A DNA stretch of 25,466 bases from a virus (Duplodnaviria > Heunggongvirae > Uroviricota > Caudoviricetes): IMG/VR virus record IMGVR_UViG_2671180892_000012, positions 1 to 25,466 of that record; one strand, 5' to 3'. Below, one piece after another: positions 1,465-19,349 of this stretch. A program made the position numbers and the translations under genes. The notes under the pieces were generated by a model. The model made no database searches, was not told the origin of the DNA, and saw nothing but the letters and a program-made list of their open reading frames with translations. The stretch's first letter is position 1. Every line of letters starts with the position of its first letter.

Positions 1465-1943
1465 TATCCCGCCCCCGTCATACCCGTGAATTTAGTCGCC
1501 ATACTGCCAGCCTTACCGATGAGCGATTCCGCCTGTTTACCGATATCGCCATAAAGCGCGGCCAGTGATTCATCAACGCGGGTGAGCGACAGCGTAAAAT
1601 CAATTTTCCGGGGTGTGCCGTCTGCAAAGAAAATACTCCCTGTTTCACTCACCCTGCTGATGACATACATGCCGTAAATCATGCCGGTGCCATCCAGCAA
1701 CGGCCACGCCCGCCCCTCCTCTGCCATCAGCCTGAGCGTGGTCATCGTCAGCTTGCCGCCGGTCAGTTCGGGATAAAGCACGCCGGCAAGCGTGATGTTT
1801 TCCTCACCCATACCGAGAAACTGAAAAGCGTCCCGTTTACCGATACGGGAATTTGACGGCCAGCGATAATCTGATTCACGCTGCATGGTCTGGTGTGGCA
1901 GCGTCTGGCGCATAAAAACAAACATACCTAACGCGAGCATCAT
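1464..1943 (-). CDS. U: Tail protein U, 159 aa
   Basis: 159-aa ORF, ATG start, synteny T-U-D, length equals P2 gpU. Confidence 0.85.
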   Translation of the reverse strand: MMLALGMFVFMRQTLPHQTMQRESDYRWPSNSRIGKRDAFQFLGMGEENITLAGVLYPELTGGKLTMTTLRLMAEEGRAWPLLDGTGMIYGMYVISRVSETGSIFFADGTPRKIDFTLSLTRVDESLAALYGDIGKQAESLIGKAGSMATKFTGMTGAG

Positions 1944-5412: not shown

Positions 5413-6603
5413 TTAATTGCTGTTAACCGAGGTGACCAGATTTGCCAGGTATTTATCAGTAATACGCTGGCGCAGGGTCAGGTTTTCAAGAGGAGGCACC
5501 GGGGTATAGTCGTAGTCGATATACAGTTTTCCGGCCTTGAGGGTTTCCGCATCGTTGGATTCTTCACTGAACCAGCAGGTCGCATCCACGATATAGCCGT
5601 TTGTTTTCAGCTCTCGGAATTTGGCATTGATGCCGTCAACGATGTCGCGAATCAGCGTTGCGGTGATGGGCTTGTCCACCGCCCACATGTGCGCCTCAGC
5701 CATCGTGTCGGCCAGTACCTGCGCGGTGCGGGTGTAGTTTTCAAAGAGGAACAGCGGGTCATCAGAGCAGGTACGGTTACCCCAGAAGCGGAAACCGTCA
5801 CGGCGAATCAGTGTTGTGACGCCTGACTCGTTAAGCAGGTCAGCATCGGTGCCGGACTCCTGCAAATCCCAGAATACAGATGCGCTGATGCCGGTAACAC
5901 CGTTTACCCCGACGTTGGACAGCGTTTTATGCCAGCCCTGCTCATGGTCGATTCTGGCACGCAGACCCAGCGCACGGGCGGTGGCATACGCGGTAGCGGT
6001 GGTACTGGTGACCGTATCCCATGCGAGGAAATCCGGCCAGATGACCATCAGCTCACGCTGGCTGAAATTCTGACGGTAGGCTTTCACCTCGGAAATGGTT
6101 TTACAGCCCCATGCGCTGATATACCCGAAAGCGCGCAGCTTCTGACAGACTGATGCCAGTGCAACAGCCACCTCTTTGGTATCCAGCCCCGGCACACCGA
6201 GAATACGCGGTTTAACACCGGTTACCGACTCCGCCGCCAGCAGGGCTTTCAGTCCGGTGTACTGACCGTTTTCGTCGGTGGTTCCGATGATATTGGAAAC
6301 AGTCTGCGCGAGTTTCGTTTCTTCGTCTTCGCCGGTGCCGTCTTCCACACGCACGACAACGGTGACCGGTTTTGACTGGTCGGCGATAGCCTGCAACGAT
6401 GCCGCCAGCGTGCCTTTTTTACCGGCCTTTGCAATTGCGCTCTGCACATTGGTAATCAGCACCGGTTTATTGAGGGGGAAGGTTTCCGCATCCGCATCGC
6501 TGGCCGTGCAGACCATGCCAACAATGGCGGTGGATACGGTGGAAATGACGCGGGTGCCGTCGTTAATCTCCAGCACCTGCACGCCGTGATGATAGTCACT
6601 CAT
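5413..6603 (-). CDS. FI: Major tail sheath protein FI, 396 aa
   Basis: 396-aa ORF, ATG start, first gene of FI-FII-E-T-U-D operon; length equals P2 gpFI. Confidence 0.85.
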   Translation of the reverse strand: MSDYHHGVQVLEINDGTRVISTVSTAIVGMVCTASDADAETFPLNKPVLITNVQSAIAKAGKKGTLAASLQAIADQSKPVTVVVRVEDGTGEDEETKLAQTVSNIIGTTDENGQYTGLKALLAAESVTGVKPRILGVPGLDTKEVAVALASVCQKLRAFGYISAWGCKTISEVKAYRQNFSQRELMVIWPDFLAWDTVTSTTATAYATARALGLRARIDHEQGWHKTLSNVGVNGVTGISASVFWDLQESGTDADLLNESGVTTLIRRDGFRFWGNRTCSDDPLFLFENYTRTAQVLADTMAEAHMWAVDKPITATLIRDIVDGINAKFRELKTNGYIVDATCWFSEESNDAETLKAGKLYIDYDYTPVPPLENLTLRQRITDKYLANLVTSVNSN

Positions 6604-6824: not shown

Positions 6825-7409
6825 ATGGCACAGAATATGCCTAAAGAGCAGAGGGTTACACTCATTACGCTAGCTACTTTAACTGCAGTAGTCGCAGTCT
6901 TTTGGTTTTTGTCTATGGTGTTCGAGCATGAAATAAAATGTTTGGGCCCCTTAGTAGTTTCACTCTCAAGTGCAATACCAGTTTTTTCCTTGTGGTGGCC
7001 ATTTAAACCTAAGTACATATCCAAACGAATACGAAATACATTATCCGTTGATTTAAATATCACAAACCATGTTCTGTTTGGTGATGGAGATTACAAGTTT
7101 GACCCTTATTTTTCCACTGCGTCAAACAGAAGCCTTCATGTTATAACAAGATATTCTAATTATCTTTTGGGAGGAGCCCCCGCCTTAGAAATATATAACT
7201 TCCATGAGATTGGTGATGCAGAAGCATTCCCAATAAACAAACTTGATATAAATAACACGCCTATTGAGCAAGTGGTTATTTTGAAAAACATTCATAATAA
7301 ATACGCCTTAATAAAAATAAACTCAATTAATCAACAGCACCCTCATATTTTTGAGATCGAGTACATTCTAAACAGCGCAGGTTCTGGGAATTTTACGGAG
7401 TGCAGATAA
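6825..7409 (+). CDS. Hypothetical membrane protein (194 aa) at the P2 Z/fun cargo position, opposite strand to the late genes
   Basis: ATG with GAGG RBS; two N-terminal hydrophobic helices (VTLITLATLTAVVAVFWFLSMVF; LGPLVVSLSSAIPVFSLWWPF); visibly AT-rich compared with flanking tail genes; between G and FI, where P2 carries Z/fun. Confidence 0.6.
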   Translation: MAQNMPKEQRVTLITLATLTAVVAVFWFLSMVFEHEIKCLGPLVVSLSSAIPVFSLWWPFKPKYISKRIRNTLSVDLNITNHVLFGDGDYKFDPYFSTASNRSLHVITRYSNYLLGGAPALEIYNFHEIGDAEAFPINKLDINNTPIEQVVILKNIHNKYALIKINSINQQHPHIFEIEYILNSAGSGNFTECR

Positions 7410-12714: not shown

Positions 12715-13500
12715 ATGGTCAGCTATAATGTGACTAATGTGTGGGAGCTAATCGTTTTGTATCTTTTGGTCTTTGCAGTATTAGCATTTTTTTGCTTTGG
12801 TAAAAGTAACCTTATGAGGCTTATTGCACATTATTTCAAATTTGGATATTCAGACAAAAAATTAAAAAGACTGGACCGCGAGTGGCGCGACATTCAACTA
12901 TTTAAAACACTTAACGGAATCAATGTATCAGGCATCGAAGATGTGAGAATGATACAGCAGGGGCTGATTGATGGAAAACTAAAAACATCGGATTTTTTCC
13001 TTACTCGCTTCTGGGGAGACATAACAGAACCGCTATGCATCACAAAAACAATGAGTGCAGTCCTGGCCGGAATTCTTTATATTATCTTCGCATGTTACAT
13101 ACACAATGAACAATCCGCTATAGTAAGGGATGCCATAGGTATACCATATAAAAATATGATGTACTATGTTTATAGTGACAAAGTTCTTTTATCCTTCAAA
13201 AATAAAACAGTTGAATTTAATAAAACTTATAGCCTTGCCGATTGCAAGAGTCTGCAAAACGTATTTATAAAAGACACACTTCCTGAGATCGCCTGCAATA
13301 AGCTCTTACAGCTAAACGAGGAGGACTCCGAATGGTTAAGTCAGGAGATTAAAGATAATAACAGCCACAGAAAAACATTATTAATACTATCCCTCGTCTA
13401 TTTCATTTCAGGTTTGCTTATATTCCTGTCATATACAAAATTCCTTTACGCCAATAAGAAGGTTTTAGAATACAAAGCATCAAATAAAAACCACTCATAA
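12715..13500 (+). CDS. Hypothetical polytopic membrane protein (261 aa) at the P2 orf30 cargo position
   Basis: ATG with AAGGAGAG RBS; three hydrophobic segments (LIVLYLLVFAVLAFFCF; AVLAGILYIIFACYI; LLILSLVYFISGLLIFLSY); AT-rich; opposite strand to flanking V and S; followed by a strong hairpin. Confidence 0.6.
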   Translation: MVSYNVTNVWELIVLYLLVFAVLAFFCFGKSNLMRLIAHYFKFGYSDKKLKRLDREWRDIQLFKTLNGINVSGIEDVRMIQQGLIDGKLKTSDFFLTRFWGDITEPLCITKTMSAVLAGILYIIFACYIHNEQSAIVRDAIGIPYKNMMYYVYSDKVLLSFKNKTVEFNKTYSLADCKSLQNVFIKDTLPEIACNKLLQLNEEDSEWLSQEIKDNNSHRKTLLILSLVYFISGLLIFLSYTKFLYANKKVLEYKASNKNHS

Positions 13501-13571: not shown

Positions 13572-14024
13572 CTAACGCTCAAGGTGAGCCAGGATAATCT
13601 CTTCAATCATCTGCACATCCTCACCGGTAAAGCCGAGCAGAGGACGCGCCGGATAATCAATTTTCTTACCGTCTTTCCGGGTTTCTTCCGACAGACCGAA
13701 CTGATGCACACTGGCGATTTTCGGCGACTTCCCGCCGTAAAATTCCATTGATGCCTGTTCCGGGCTGGCGCGGATATGCAAAAAACGACTGGTGATAAGT
13801 TTCGCAAACATTTTTCGCTTAACACGACCGGTCTTTTTTCTGGCGATCTGCTGCTGGCGTGGCGCGTAGGGTGTGCCGTCCGGGGCTTTCTGTGCCATCA
13901 CCCGACGCTGCTGACTCTGACGCAGACGTTTCGCCAGTTCGGCACTCAGTCGCCGACGCCCTGACGGTGACAGCGATTCAATAAGTCCGGTCAGCCGGTC
14001 TTCAAAACGCTTAAACTCATTCAT
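13572..14024 (-). CDS. S: Tail completion protein S, 150 aa
   Basis: 150-aa ORF, ATG start, synteny R-S; length equals P2 gpS. Confidence 0.8.
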   Translation of the reverse strand: MNEFKRFEDRLTGLIESLSPSGRRRLSAELAKRLRQSQQRRVMAQKAPDGTPYAPRQQQIARKKTGRVKRKMFAKLITSRFLHIRASPEQASMEFYGGKSPKIASVHQFGLSEETRKDGKKIDYPARPLLGFTGEDVQMIEEIILAHLER

Positions 14025-14484
14025 CCCACTTGCTCACCAGTTCGCCATTGATATAAAGCTCCATCGGGCGGGTGACCGGCTCCGGCGGCGGGGGTTCCGG
14101 GATATTCTTCACATGCAGCGCGCCATCCACCTCACTGACCAGCGTGCGCTCGGTCAGCATCAGGCTGATGCTGATATCAAAGCTGCTGTCATTGTTGATG
14201 TCTGCATAAAACGTGAAGCCCTTTTTCTGGCCTTCGTCGGTGGTCATGATGTCGGGCTGATTTTCCCGCAGCCACGCCAGCACCGGCACGATGAGCAGGT
14301 CAAAATCACCGGTAAAGTCGGTCACAATGACATTGAGCGTGTAACGCTTTTCAAATGACAGCGACGTCGCCAGTGTGGAGGCAATACTCCCGTTATCCAC
14401 GAATATCCGCAGCATCTCGGGACTGGTTTTCAGCACCGTGACGGCATCAGTCAGCGCCCTGCGCAGGCTGTCGGGTTTGAGCAT
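14017..14484 (-). CDS. R: Tail completion protein R, 155 aa
   Basis: 155-aa ORF, ATG start, downstream of the lysis genes; length equals P2 gpR. Confidence 0.8.
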   Translation of the reverse strand: MLKPDSLRRALTDAVTVLKTSPEMLRIFVDNGSIASTLATSLSFEKRYTLNVIVTDFTGDFDLLIVPVLAWLRENQPDIMTTDEGQKKGFTFYADINNDSSFDISISLMLTERTLVSEVDGALHVKNIPEPPPPEPVTRPMELYINGELVSKWDE

Positions 14485-14737
14485 CGTTTTCGTCCTGACA
14501 GTGTTTAATCATTTTTACCTGGCTGGCACAGCGTGCCAGCGCGTTCTCAAGCTGCCGGATATCGGCACTTAAATCGCCGTTCGTCTCCGGGTCACTGCCC
14601 GGCATCGGGCAAAGGCTCACTTTCGGGCAGGCGTTGGCGACAATCACTGGCGTCTGCGCAGGCGGGGCGCTGGTGCAACCGGCGCACAGCATCAGGCAGG
14701 TCAGCACCGTACCAGTGGCGGAAATCTTCGTTTTCAT
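14447..14737 (-). CDS. lysC: LysC, Rz1-like outer-membrane lipoprotein spanin (about 96 aa), embedded in another frame of lysB and running into R
   Basis: Internal ATG at 14737 gives MKTKISATGTVLTCLMLCAGCTSAPP..., a lipoprotein signal peptide with a lipobox (LCAGC); +1-frame overlap with lysB as in P2. Confidence 0.6.
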   Translation of the reverse strand: MKTKISATGTVLTCLMLCAGCTSAPPAQTPVIVANACPKVSLCPMPGSDPETNGDLSADIRQLENALARCASQVKMIKHCQDENDAQTRQPAQGAD

Positions 14738-15017
14738 TGAGTAACCTCGTGATGGTTTTCTCGCGCTGTGCTTCACGCTTCGCGGCGTTCTCCAGTTCCT
14801 GACGCAGTGCCACCTGCGCCAGCTCGTTTTTGTCTGCCCTGGTGAGGGCAACATGAAGCTGATTTTTCAGCATGGTGATGGTCGTCTGCTGTTCACTGGC
14901 GACGTTATTCGCCCTGTCCAGCGAGGCGCGCAGGCTGTCATTTTTGTGTTTCACCAGAAACAGACCGGCCACCGCCAGCGATAACAACACAACCAGCACA
15001 GTCATCAGCTTTGACAT
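14592..15017 (-). CDS. lysB: LysB, Rz-like inner-membrane spanin, 141 aa
   Basis: N-terminal transmembrane helix (LMTVLVVLLSLAVAGLFLV) followed by a charged helical periplasmic domain; length and position match P2 LysB. Confidence 0.75.
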   Translation of the reverse strand: MSKLMTVLVVLLSLAVAGLFLVKHKNDSLRASLDRANNVASEQQTTITMLKNQLHVALTRADKNELAQVALRQELENAAKREAQREKTITRLLNENEDFRHWYGADLPDAVRRLHQRPACADASDCRQRLPESEPLPDAGQ

Positions 15018-15430
15018 GGTTCCCGCCCCTCAATACGCTGACGGCAGGCCGTGCGTATCAGCCGGAAAAACAGCGACGTCATGAGATAAATCAGCGCGGT
15101 AAAAATCCACCCGGCAGCAATCAGCGAGACAAACGTCGCCACCATCACCACCAGAGCCGCCGCCCGTCTGCGCCACGGCACCGGCTGCAAAAACAGCGAC
15201 GTGACAATCTGCACGGCCAGCGATTCCGGCGGCAGCTCCCGCCCGTAGCGTTCCAGTACATACTCCGTGGCATACACGCCGACACCACCGGCAACCACAC
15301 AGATAACCGTCGCCAGAATCGCCCAGGCAGCGACAAAATTGACGGCCACGCTCTGCGGGTAAATCAGGGACAGTGCCGGCATCAGCGCCAGCGACACGTT
15401 CAGCATCAGTGAAAGGGATAATTTCTTCAT
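15005..15430 (-). CDS. lysA: LysA, lysis-timing membrane protein, 141 aa
   Basis: 141-aa ORF with several hydrophobic helices; position between K and lysB as in P2. Confidence 0.75.
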   Translation of the reverse strand: MKKLSLSLMLNVSLALMPALSLIYPQSVAVNFVAAWAILATVICVVAGGVGVYATEYVLERYGRELPPESLAVQIVTSLFLQPVPWRRRAAALVVMVATFVSLIAAGWIFTALIYLMTSLFFRLIRTACRQRIEGREPCQS

Positions 15431-15444
15431 GGTGTTTACTCCGT

Positions 15445-15684
15445 TTAAGCCGGTACGCCGCCGGCGGTACGCCAGACGGTGACCAGTTTTTCCAGTGAAT
15501 GCTCACGCTGACCGTAACCGGCACCCGGCAGGGACGCCCAGATATTGCGACAGCGTGAAATGGCGCGCTCAATGCGTCCCGCCCGGATGTCATCCAGTGC
15601 ACCGCGTTCGCGGATCAACTGAATGGCGAGTCTGTCCTGTGACAACGGACTGAAATCCGGCAGGGCAAGCTGTTTGCGGTAAGG
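15445..15684 (-). pseudogene. K: 3' fragment of endolysin gene K (C-terminal ~80 codons only, no start codon)
   Basis: Open frame reads ...PYRKQLALPDFSPLSQDRLAIQLIRERGALDDIRAGRIERAISRCRNIWASLPGAGYGQREHSLEKLVTVWRTAGGVPA and is closed upstream by a stop at 15685-15687; the ORF-track M at 15645 is a TTG; the N-terminal catalytic part is absent. Confidence 0.6.
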
Positions 15685-16352
15685 TCATCAGACTGGAAAC
15701 CTCACCGGCAAAATATACCCGCCGTGGCGTGGAGGAGGATGTTTACTGGTGGGTGCCGTCCTTCAACGAGCCGACAGCCTTCACGCCCGGCTCCGTGTTT
15801 CACCTGCTGGAGCCGGATATCAATCAGGAGCTGTACGGCCTGCCGGAATATCTCAGCGCCCTTAATTCTGCCTGGCTGAATGAATCAGCCACACTGTTCC
15901 GCCGCAAGTATTACGAAAACGGCGCTCATGCCGGATACATCATGTACGTCACTGATGCCGTGCAGGATCGCAACGATATCGAAATGCTCCGCGAAAACAT
16001 GGTGAAGTCGAAAGGCCGCAACAACTTTAAAAACCTGTTTCTCTATGCACCACAGGGAAAAGCCGACGGCATTAAAATTATCCCGCTCAGTGAAGTGGCA
16101 ACGAAGGACGATTTTTTTAATATCAAAAAAGCCAGCGCCGCTGACCTGCTGGACGCGCACCGCATCCCCTTTCAGTTAATGGGCGGCAAGCCGGAGAACG
16201 TCGGGTCACTGGGCGATATTGAGAAAGTGGCAAAGGTCTTTGTCCGCAATGAGCTTATCCCGTTACAGGACAGGATTCGGGAAATAAACGGCTGGCTCGG
16301 TCAGGAGGTCATCCGCTTTAAAAACTACTCACTGGACACTGACAACGGCTGA
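15654..16352 (+). pseudogene. Q: 3' fragment of portal gene Q (about 230 C-terminal codons, no proper start)
   Basis: Frame is open from 15654; ORF-track start at 15729 is GTG; convergent with the late operon and ends about 170 nt before cos, as expected for the Q 3' end; identification as portal is from memory of P2 Q and synteny. Confidence 0.55.
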
Positions 16353-16357
16353 ACATC

Positions 16358-16379
16358 GCCGCCTGCGGGCGGCTTTTTT
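16358..16379 (+). terminator. Rho-independent terminator after the Q fragment (stem gccgcc/ggcggc, loop tgcg, then TTTTTT)
   Basis: Read directly from the sequence, immediately 3' of the Q stop. Confidence 0.5.
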
Positions 16380-16522
16380 ACACCCCCGTCATCACGCCCT
16401 CACACGCTCTCCACCGCACAAAACAGCCCGCAGGCAAACCAACGCCCCGGCGCACAATCTAAACGCTATCACGACGCGCTCAGACGCTGAAAAAATAAAA
16501 TCAGCACCACCGCCAGCGCGCA

Positions 16523-16541
16523 GTGCTTTCCCCGCCTCGCC
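16523..16541 (-). other. cos cohesive-end sequence (minus strand GGCGAGGCGGGGAAAGCAC)
   Basis: Plus strand gtgctttccccgcctcgcc is the reverse complement of the 19-nt P2 cohesive end as I remember it; located between Q and the old-position cargo, as in P2. Confidence 0.6.
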
Positions 16542-16647
16542 CGCCCGCTTCATGGGTCGGTTTTAATGCAGTTGCATAAACATAGTACAAGCGCGCCAGT
16601 CAAGCCTAGCGCACATACATAGAGAACGTATTTAAACATGCAAAATG

Positions 16648-16666
16648 ATGCACCCTATAGGTGCAT
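16648..16666 (-). terminator. Hairpin (atgcacc / ggtgcat, 5-nt loop) just downstream of the cargo operon; possible terminator
   Basis: 7-bp inverted repeat 13 nt after the stop of the 333-aa gene; minus strand continues CATTTTG. Confidence 0.3.
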
Positions 16667-16678
16667 TCATATTAAACA

Positions 16679-17680
16679 TCACCGAGCCATCTTGACTGCA
16701 TAATGAACACAAAAATAATGTTCTCCCGCATATCTAAAATGATGTTCAATTTTTCTCAAACCTATATATGGAGTCTCCACTTCTTTAATCCCAACTATCT
16801 CATGAGATTCTACACCAATATCTACCGGAGTAATCTCTTTTAGATAATCAATGTATCTCTCACACCAAGCATCAAATTTTGCGCCAGTATAATAAGCAAT
16901 TAAAAACAAGCGTTTAACATTAATAGGATTATAGTTACCAATTAGCTTTGAATAATGCTTTAATATGTTAGCTTGATCTAGAGATTTTAAAATCAATGCT
17001 TCTATTATAGCAAATAGATTTCCTTTATCTTCAATAACAAGATCTAATTCACCCGCACTTTTACCAGATTGAGACTCTCCCTCTCTAGTTTGATCTTTTA
17101 CCTCATAATTCTTAGCTAATAACATATCCCGTATAAAATCATTAAAATCATCTTCACCATATCCTTTAGCAGAGCGACGCCCCAATCTTTGAAGCACCCA
17201 AGATAAATCACTATCAAACTTTATAAAATTCAAAGGACGCTGCACTCGATCATCCTTTGATATTAAGCTTATACTATTAAGATTTAACAAATTAATCCTT
17301 TGCCTGATTAATTCATCAATATATCCAGAGTAACTATTATTATCTAACACTACGATATGCTTATCAAAAGTAGTGGCTGCATTAGCAACTGCACAAACAA
17401 CTATATCCTTAATATCCTCAGAACTATTCGGCACTGGTGTACGCAATATCTTGCCTGAAGGAGCTTTAGATAACTCAGACTCCCACTTCTTAAAAAACAA
17501 AAAAGAATCCTTGTTGTTTCCGCAAGACTTTAAATAACCTAAGCGAATTTTTCCATCAGCATCAAGAATCAACTCATTTTCACCATTAACAATGGTTTCA
17601 ATAAAAAAACCGCTAAACACTTTAACATCAGAAATATTAGCAGCAACAAATTCAGGACACAAACAAACAGCACAAAGCAT
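16679..17680 (-). CDS. Hypothetical 333-aa protein, second gene of the ATPase operon; candidate effector, family not recognised
   Basis: ATG 1 nt after the ATPase stop (translationally coupled); AT-rich; no transmembrane segments; C-terminal half has a pattern (FIRDMLLAKNYEV ... GELDLVIEDKGNLFAIIEALILK) resembling Mrr-like PD-(D/E)xK nuclease cores, unverified. Confidence 0.65.
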   Translation of the reverse strand: MLCAVCLCPEFVAANISDVKVFSGFFIETIVNGENELILDADGKIRLGYLKSCGNNKDSFLFFKKWESELSKAPSGKILRTPVPNSSEDIKDIVVCAVANAATTFDKHIVVLDNNSYSGYIDELIRQRINLLNLNSISLISKDDRVQRPLNFIKFDSDLSWVLQRLGRRSAKGYGEDDFNDFIRDMLLAKNYEVKDQTREGESQSGKSAGELDLVIEDKGNLFAIIEALILKSLDQANILKHYSKLIGNYNPINVKRLFLIAYYTGAKFDAWCERYIDYLKEITPVDIGVESHEIVGIKEVETPYIGLRKIEHHFRYAGEHYFCVHYAVKMAR

Positions 17681-17681
17681 A

Positions 17682-19349
17682 TCAATGAACTCCCTTTGAG
17701 TTCATTATTTTTTGTATCTTTAATTCCTGTATTCTAATTGTATCCTGAATCTCAACATCCATAAACTCATTTGGCCATGTGATATCTCCATCAGAATTCA
17801 CAGCCACTCTATTTAGTAAGGTTGATGTTCCCTCTTCATCTCGCTCAAGATGATAGATTGCCACATGGTCCTCAGTAAGTTCGCTTGATTCATCAACAAT
17901 TCTTAATCTAATCCGTCTAACTAATGCATCACTATGTGTTTCAATAATAAAAATTTTCTTTTCTTGCATAGATATTTTAATTAATGCGTCAGTTAACCAT
18001 GCCTGCATTTTAGGATGCAAATGTATTTCTGGTTGTTCTATTATTGTAATCGAGCCCTTTGGTGACAAATAAGCTTGAACCAAGACAGGCAACACTTGTG
18101 ATATTCCAAACCCTACATCTGTCAATTCTAAATTAACAGCATCTTGGTTTATAACTATCTTATGAATTATGTCATTAACTCTAACTATATCAACCGCTAA
18201 GTTAAATTCAGCGAGAAGAAGGTTTATGTTTTCTGTTATTTTTGTATTTTTCTTCAGAATCTCCGCCAACTCAGAGCCATCAGCAGAATTTAACTGAGCA
18301 TGATTGACTGTTTTATCTAATAAATAATAACGCTGAGGAAATGCCCTCAACGGGCTGACATGATTAACATTTTCGCCATCAAACATTTTTGAAAGCATTA
18401 ATACTCCCAGAGAAACAACATGTGACAAAAAGTTAACAACAGGGTTGTAGGAATTTCCAAAAAAAACATAAAAACCACGTCCTTCATTGACAGGGAATAG
18501 CCCCAAAGAATAAGGATTCATGATTTCTAAGATATCAGACTTACATCCTCTAAATACTTCTTGAGGGATAACATCCGACAATACAACGACATTATTCTTT
18601 TTGGGTAACAGTTCAACTATTCTTTCATCATTCTTATTTAGAAGAACAAATCTCGAAACCTTTACCACACCTTTATTTTTATCATATCTGAAGTCATAAC
18701 TTATTTTAGATGCAGACAATTTATTTCCTGAAATAGAAACAACTTTAGTTAGGCAATCTTTGATTCTCTTCAATGGGCATTCATATATAAATCTGCGTAA
18801 GTTTTCTGAGGTGGCCCGGCTAAACATAATATTATTGCCAGCATCTCTAAAAAGCATAATCAACTGGCACAATTTATCAGCAATAATATTTAATTTAGCC
18901 TCCTCAAACTCATCAAAATTAACAATGGCATTCAAAGATTCATTTATCAAATTATTGGCCTTCGCGACCAACTCATCATTATTTTTTACTGTCTGTATAG
19001 TGAATCGCATAATCATAGCAAATGATTCTAAAGTTTCTCTTCTCAGAGTATCAATGCCATTTTTAACTACGCTATTATCAGAAAAATCAAAGCTAAAGTT
19101 AAGTGTTTTGGAGTCATCTTTATTTTTTATAATATTTAATGCTTCCCCCATTCCCACTTTAGGTCCATTCAGCCGTAGAGCAGAGTCAGACAATGACATT
19201 GAATCAACTGTCTGAGAAAACATCAACAAAGAGTTAATTAGTGCACTTTTTCCACAACTATTTGCACCTAACAATATTGTCAATGGCTTTAAATCTAACT
19301 TAAAGCTTTCGTATGCTTTATAATTTTGTCCTGTAAAAGTTCTCAGCAT
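17682..19349 (-). CDS. P-loop ATPase of the OLD/ABC (AAA_15/AAA_21-like) type, 555 aa, no Toprim domain
   Basis: Walker A GANSCGKS at codons 28-35 (nt 19245-19268, checked by reverse complement); Walker B/D-loop ITIIEQPEIHLHP and H-loop IIETHS near residues 433-473; about 400-aa insert between them; AAGGAG RBS 8 nt before the ATG; AT-rich. Confidence 0.8.
   Translation of the reverse strand: MLRTFTGQNYKAYESFKLDLKPLTILLGANSCGKSALINSLLMFSQTVDSMSLSDSALRLNGPKVGMGEALNIIKNKDDSKTLNFSFDFSDNSVVKNGIDTLRRETLESFAMIMRFTIQTVKNNDELVAKANNLINESLNAIVNFDEFEEAKLNIIADKLCQLIMLFRDAGNNIMFSRATSENLRRFIYECPLKRIKDCLTKVVSISGNKLSASKISYDFRYDKNKGVVKVSRFVLLNKNDERIVELLPKKNNVVVLSDVIPQEVFRGCKSDILEIMNPYSLGLFPVNEGRGFYVFFGNSYNPVVNFLSHVVSLGVLMLSKMFDGENVNHVSPLRAFPQRYYLLDKTVNHAQLNSADGSELAEILKKNTKITENINLLLAEFNLAVDIVRVNDIIHKIVINQDAVNLELTDVGFGISQVLPVLVQAYLSPKGSITIIEQPEIHLHPKMQAWLTDALIKISMQEKKIFIIETHSDALVRRIRLRIVDESSELTEDHVAIYHLERDEEGTSTLLNRVAVNSDGDITWPNEFMDVEIQDTIRIQELKIQKIMNSKGVH

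Follow-up and report, generated by a model that had tools for sequence, protein, structure and literature searches.

Evidence for a single 6.4-kb deletion joining endolysin gene K to portal gene Q in a P2-like prophage of Escherichia coli

Prophages described as "grounded" have been reviewed in general terms (PMC6379469), and defective P2-like prophages that lack mobility functions while keeping near-identical defence genes are a described class (PMC13586616). The late genes of P2 are served by four Ogr-dependent promoters, of which PP drives PQ and PO drives ONMLKRS (PMC3931495), and published descriptions place these two divergent promoters in the P-O intergenic region. Gene X counts as one of the tail genes of P2 (PMC3091744). 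The cos-A locus of P2-like prophages is reported to carry defence systems. Here we describe a P2-like prophage of E. coli that shares with the defective elements already on record the deletion of morphogenesis and lysis genes and the retention of cargo or defence genes. It does not differ from them in kind; it is an unusually fresh example with a single lesion.

The prophage and its relatives

The window, by which we mean the whole 25,466-base stretch of DNA that was analysed, is an entire P2-like prophage running from ogr to int. Over its full length it is 99.98% identical to chromosomal DNA of E. coli N61 (NZ_AP028880.1), which came from bovine mastitis in Japan, with three substitutions and one single-base indel; the N61 prophage sits between pflB and pflA. 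Around the junction of K and Q, a stretch of 6.6 kb is matched base for base in the NCBI draft GCA_001576105.1 (contig LOPH01000019.1), and a 3.8-kb stretch is identical in the Logan assembly of run DRR634189. The nearest phages are the Peduovirus P2 isolates, Wphi and L-413C, with 96-98% nucleotide identity over the shared blocks. The blocks of the window lie in P2 order and are 92-98% identical to Wphi and P2DC1, and the gene order on both sides of the junction is that of Wphi, P2DC1 and L-413C (ogr-D...FI-G...V-S-R-lysCBA-K and Q-cos-cargo-A...B-cox-C-int). Outside the deleted block and the cargo loci, all P2 genes were found in the window by tblastn. Window and Wphi have 100% identical Ogr proteins; int, C and cox were both annotated (PGAP in N61) and aligned (tblastn with the Wphi proteins). 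Judged by synteny, identity, ogr, cos and int/C/Cox, the element is a member of the P2-like (Peduovirus) group.

The P2-type phages P2DC1 (NC_070905), Wphi (NC_005056) and L-413C differ from the window in attachment site, which here is pflB/pflA, and in their cargo genes. Furthermore, the integrase of Wphi is only 55% identical to that of the window, C 46% and Cox 30%.

An intact sibling is found in strain E308 (NZ_CP030281.1), where a prophage occupies the same integration site at pflA as in N61. The two share the accessions of the repressor (WP_001389238.1) and of the cargo ATPase (WP_024249463.1), and the E308 prophage is 98.6% identical to the window from the Q remnant through int. In contrast to the window, E308 has an intact Q-P-O-N-M-L-X-Y-K block, amounting to 6,394 bp more. 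The preliminary description of this DNA had named comparison with the same prophage in related strains as a means of checking for a deletion, and the E308 sibling supports a deletion in the N61 lineage. The left arm of E308, however, is only 92-97% identical to the window; the E308 prophage is thus a mosaic and not the direct parent, and a direct parent of the exact window prophage was not found.

The N61 prophage is flanked by a 19-bp direct repeat (17/19 bases identical), whose copies lie 25,683 bp apart and outside the window (1475-1493 and 27158-27176 of locus L001) and which is a candidate att core. Since the right copy falls within the 5' end of pflA and only 32 bp separate int from pflA, the phage end may provide the start of that gene.

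The junction of K and Q

The point at which the two truncated genes meet comprises the following features.

15677..15682, no strand: deletion junction with a 6-bp microhomology, CGGTAA (three-line alignment with both P2DC1 sides).
15445..15681, minus strand: K', a pseudogene consisting of the 3' 78 codons and stop of endolysin gene K, residues 88-165 of 165 (tblastn, PGAP).
15678..16352, plus strand: Q', a pseudogene consisting of the 3' 224 codons and stop of portal gene Q, residues 121-344 of 344 (tblastn, profiles, PGAP).

K' and Q' are joined head to head at 15677-15682. In BLASTN alignments against Wphi, P2DC1 and E308, to each of which both arms are 96-98% identical, the K-side arm ended at 15682 and the Q-side arm started at 15677 every time. 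This agrees with the preliminary description, which had the two frames meeting within 15654-15684 with no genes between them and had pointed to alignment against the P2 genome and a search for microhomology as ways to define the joint. The hexamer CGGTAA is present in both parental sequences, K and Q, and identity changes cleanly from one parent to the other there; the three-line alignment of the window with the K and Q sides of P2DC1 contained zero inserted or foreign bases. An overlap of at least 6 bp arose in only 0.2% of 200,000 simulated pairs of random breakpoints within K and Q (about 0.002), so the microhomology is unlikely to be a product of chance. It therefore points to short-homology illegitimate recombination, by slippage or microhomology-mediated joining. 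IS-mediated deletion and replacement by foreign DNA were both rejected because no extra bases lie at the junction, and homologous recombination between two prophages was rejected because K and Q share only 6 bp. A scan of 14900-16690 for sigma-70 promoters found none, so none was created by the fusion.

The 78 codons of K' are 100% identical to residues 88-165 of Wphi gpK in tblastn, in keeping with the roughly 80 C-terminal codons first read on the minus strand. K' has no start codon, and an in-frame stop lies directly upstream (15685-15687). In a search of solved structures gpK was homologous to lambda lysozyme (PDB 1AM7, 3D3D; E = 5e-44). The Glu of its SEGT motif, K residue 21, aligns with the catalytic residue 19 of lambda lysozyme and is inside the deleted part. 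With this Glu lost, the K' stump, judged by its sequence, cannot be an active enzyme. Neither K nor K' matched a family in Pfam or NCBIfam.

Q' is 98% identical to Wphi gpQ. The residues given above, 121-344, follow from the codon count; the tblastn alignment itself starts at gpQ residue 118, three residues beyond the true junction. The remnant lacks its native start codon and the PP promoter, has an in-frame stop upstream at 15651, and matches TIGR01540 (portal_PBSX, 1.7e-56) from profile position 84 on and Pfam Phage_portal in part. An open C-terminal part of Q on the plus strand had been proposed correctly, its length of about 230 codons being corrected here to 224. Full-length copies of K and Q, which would have contradicted their reading as fragments, were looked for and are not present. 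In N61, PGAP labels the two stumps 'lysozyme family protein' and 'phage portal protein', each 'incomplete; missing N-terminus', and both are thus already flagged as pseudogenes in RefSeq. They are the sole broken genes in the window, and on that ground the event looks recent.

Three assemblies contain the exact 51-nt junction: those of N61 and GCA_001576105.1 (on a 420-kb contig of this draft) and the Logan assembly of DRR634189. The reads of DRR634189 may be those of N61 itself, in which case only two of the assemblies would be independent. A 161-bp query spanning the junction was covered by a single place in one of 5,426 complete E. coli genomes, that of N61, and within N61 it detected no second copy of either half. 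K and Q were adjacent in none of 75 P2-type phage records, the halves being apart in all 75. On these two counts, the junction allele is private to one lineage as far as the databases reach.

In two unrelated assemblies, the Logan assembly of ERR10124935 (L008 2940-3000) and an ENA metagenome scaffold (L011 2940-3000), Q is full length with single-base frameshifts at about codons 115-121. One of these frameshifts appears to fall within the GGTAAGG of the Q breakpoint; they are probably assembly errors.

Functions lost and retained

Compared with P2DC1 and Wphi, 6,400 bp are missing from the window, covering Q(5')-P-O-N-M-L-X-Y-K(5'); against E308 the interval is 6,394 bp. The deletion is thus about 6.4 kb in length, and not the roughly 8 kb first estimated. 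It took Q codons 1-120, all of P, O, N, M, L, X and Y, and K codons 1-87, together with the P-O intergenic region. The products lost are the large (P) and small (M) terminase subunits, scaffold O, major capsid protein N, head completion protein L, tail protein X (a tail gene also in the annotation of the Wphi record) and holin Y. This gene loss, as originally proposed, is borne out by nucleotide alignments and by tblastn, which with all 43 Wphi proteins detected none of P, O, N, M, L, X and Y anywhere in the window. Relocation inside the element, which would have undone the earlier reading, is thereby ruled out. The prophage thus has the marks of an element made defective by deletion: its morphogenetic genes are absent and not relocated, and the truncated genes abut without foreign DNA.

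The features retained next to the deletion are as follows.

13572..15430, minus strand: lysA, lysB, lysC, R and S, intact, formerly of the PO operon (full-length in tblastn, 93-99%; intact in PGAP).
16358..16373, plus strand: terminator-like stem-loop followed by a T run, right after the Q stop (consensus scan only).
16523..16541, minus strand: 19-nt GGCGAGGCGGGGAAAGCAC, taken as the P2 cohesive end, cos (exact single match).

Because the P-O intergenic region is deleted and R and S belong to the PO operon, these two genes, with lysA, lysB and lysC, would be cut off from PO; the claim follows from the intergenic deletion read together with the literature on P2 (PMC3931495). Exact matches to the Ogr late-promoter motif TGT-N12-ACA number three in the window, none at the expected places, with 6.8 expected by chance, and with one mismatch allowed the motif matches everywhere. 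Readthrough from the cargo operon into K'-lysA-R-S may occur. A terminator-like hairpin lies 3' of the cargo genes at 16666-16648 (consensus scan).

The preliminary description called the prophage tail-only, head-less and lysis-defective. The last two terms stand. The first does not: with X deleted and R and S separated from PO, complete tails are doubtful, and from its gene content the prophage probably cannot finish tails.

Tblastn with the Wphi proteins gave full-length alignments for lysA, lysB, lysC, R, S, V, W, J, I, H, G, FI, FII, E, T, U, D, ogr, orf78, B and orf80-83. The alignment of A covers 754 of 761 residues, and int, C and cox were recovered as divergent homologues. The claim that immunity (C, cox), int, replication (B, A), ogr, cos and cargo had been kept was upheld by tblastn and PGAP, which show them at full length. 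The stem-loop at 16358..16373 is also retained, being inside the arm aligned to P2DC1 and Wphi. The 19-mer GGCGAGGCGGGGAAAGCAC, presumably the cohesive end of P2, has one exact match in the window with zero expected by chance, and the linear Wphi record has its first base aligned to window position 16541.

The sheath gene FI differs between the window and N61. At about window position 6414, N61 has one extra T and PGAP calls the gene 'frameshifted'; in the window FI is unbroken, with 98.7% identity to its Wphi counterpart across 396 aa. Either the sister strains truly differ at this base or the extra T comes from a sequencing error in N61.

The tail gene clusters, which are on the minus strand, enclose two plus-strand orphan ORFs: that of the S/V gap (12715-13500) has 261 aa, with hydrophobic stretches, perhaps membrane-spanning, and that of the G/FI gap (6825-7409) has 194 aa. 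Neither has a Pfam or PADLOC match. P2DC1 has a 786-nt ORF in the same S/V gap.

Between cos and gene A lies a two-gene cargo pair (16679-19349, minus strand). One of them codes for an AAA_15/AAA_21 ATPase of 555 aa, which in PADLOC is matched best by NsnB (2e-51), HEC-03B, PDC-M55A and AriA. The other encodes a protein of 333 aa that has a weak PD-(D/E)xK-like stretch (residues 174-250, E = 0.007) and otherwise no family match. Against Pfam, three of the four non-P2 ORFs in the window had no match, and the ATPase matched only AAA-type families. On the basis of these similarities, the pair is probably an anti-phage system. It also occurs at about 98.7% in E308, JX21CE8 and PSJ-12, and at about 90% in 7CC and ARS-C301.

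Origin and consequences of the deletion

We consider it highly probable that one deletion of about 6.4 kb, formed by illegitimate recombination between the CGGTAA in K and the CGGTAA in Q, grounded this P2-like prophage. The mechanism would be RecA-independent, through short-homology slippage or end-joining. From the genes lost, the result would be a prophage that makes no heads, does not cut or package DNA and does not lyse its host. It would persist as chromosomal DNA, with repressor, int, replication genes, ogr, cos and cargo intact. That a single deletion joins truncated K to truncated Q, as was first proposed, is supported by the one clean junction in the nucleotide alignments; we infer one event from this junction together with E308, which is only 96.7-98.6% identical.

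Three further deletions of the head, holin and endolysin block were found in P2-like prophages at fieF/cpxP, with overlaps of 9, 2 and 5 bp at their junctions.

L004 17045-17053: lysA/Q' junction of the BA22372 type with a 9-bp overlap, in 70 complete E. coli genomes.
L005 17200-17201: K'/Q' junction of strain 3908 with a 2-bp overlap.
L006 13042-13046: junction of OHT76-1, from lysA to just before cos, with a 5-bp overlap.

The BA22372-type prophage, fixed in a clone to which the 70 complete genomes belong (for example BA22372, WCHEC020031 and AMA1167), resembles the one described here in having lost the head block, holin and endolysin, in its microhomology junction within Q (the 9-bp overlap) and in keeping lysA, lysB, lysC, R and S. 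In contrast, it stems from an independent event at another attachment site and with other breakpoints, has lost K wholly while its Q keeps about 286 codons, and is far more decayed, with FI, V and A truncated too. A breakpoint hotspot, suggested by clustering in the four independent deletions, was not accepted because the query needs both arms, which introduces ascertainment bias.

Such independent deletions of the same block in other P2-like prophages would also be expected if the loss had been favoured by selection, shedding host-killing and particle functions while keeping immunity and anti-phage cargo. Selected domestication of this kind would be further in line with the identical accession of the cargo ATPase in N61 and the intact E308 and with the defective P2 elements that have conserved defence genes (PMC13586616). 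We nevertheless regard it as unlikely. Since the other deletions were recovered by a query that needed both arms, ascertainment accounts for at least part of the resemblance between their breakpoints; the junction, found in one of 5,426 complete genomes, has not spread; and the intact state of all remaining genes fits a recent event that has left no time for selection to show. Moreover, P2-type prophages induce rarely, and little cost would have been removed. That the junction is an artefact, in which the assembly of an intact prophage was collapsed or mis-joined, has next to no chance of being correct. Small assembly errors do occur, as the 1-nt FI indel between N61 and the window illustrates, and otherwise nothing specific favours it. 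The identical junction is found in a complete genome, a 420-kb draft contig and a Logan assembly, the 6 bp shared by K and Q are far too little to collapse an assembly, and N61 has no second place matching either junction half.

The retention of V, W, J, I, H, G, FI, FII, E, T, U, D, R and S, and also of ogr, at full length could suggest a tailocin in the making, a head-less element kept as a phage-tail-like bacteriocin. This is very improbable: the deletion of tail gene X leaves the contractile-tail gene set incomplete, the absence of holin Y and of K residues 1-87 leaves no route of release, R and S have lost PO, and the sheath gene FI is frameshifted in N61. Replication, integration and cos are all present, though normally absent from a domesticated tailocin. 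With cos, replication genes A and B, int, cox, ogr and a nearly full tail set kept, the element might instead behave as a helper-dependent satellite that obtains capsids, terminase, gpX and lysis in trans from a heteroimmune P2-like phage superinfecting the cell. If so, a genome of about 25.7 kb with its defence cargo would be packaged cos-to-cos by the superinfecting phage. In favour of a P4-like life style is a cos for the helper terminase, the 19-nt sequence that we take for P2 cos being retained exactly. None of the four non-P2 ORFs, however, resembles a P4 helper-exploitation function (sid, psu, delta, epsilon), and structural genes are not absent as they should be, all tail genes except X being present. 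We attach a low probability to this behaviour.

Many E. coli genomes match about 60 bp around cos (window 16516-16576) at 88-95% identity in unannotated places, possibly the cos regions of P4-like satellites. A 2.3-kb query matched two additional places in N61. These are probably cos-like sequences as well, given that in many genomes the match is confined to window 16516-16576 and falls in DNA without annotation. If they are P4-like satellites, the head genes of the resident helper have been lost to them, and such a loss could strand resident P4-like satellites.

Induction by mitomycin C, proposed at the outset as a test for released particles or tails, would probably be uninformative for this prophage, since P2-type prophages are classically not SOS-inducible (that is, not inducible by DNA damage) and a 186-type tum gene was not seen in the element.

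Taken together, the deletion represents ordinary prophage decay, a kind of feature that is already well documented, and it has little significance beyond annotation. Independent losses of the same block could motivate an unbiased survey of which modules are lost first, a question already under study. For annotation, the prophage is to be classed as defective; it should not be counted among the potential sources of infectious phage or of helper functions for P4-like satellites. It offers a clean, datable case of a P2-type prophage that was very probably grounded in a single step by a deletion at a 6-bp microhomology, with its repressor and probable anti-phage cargo intact.
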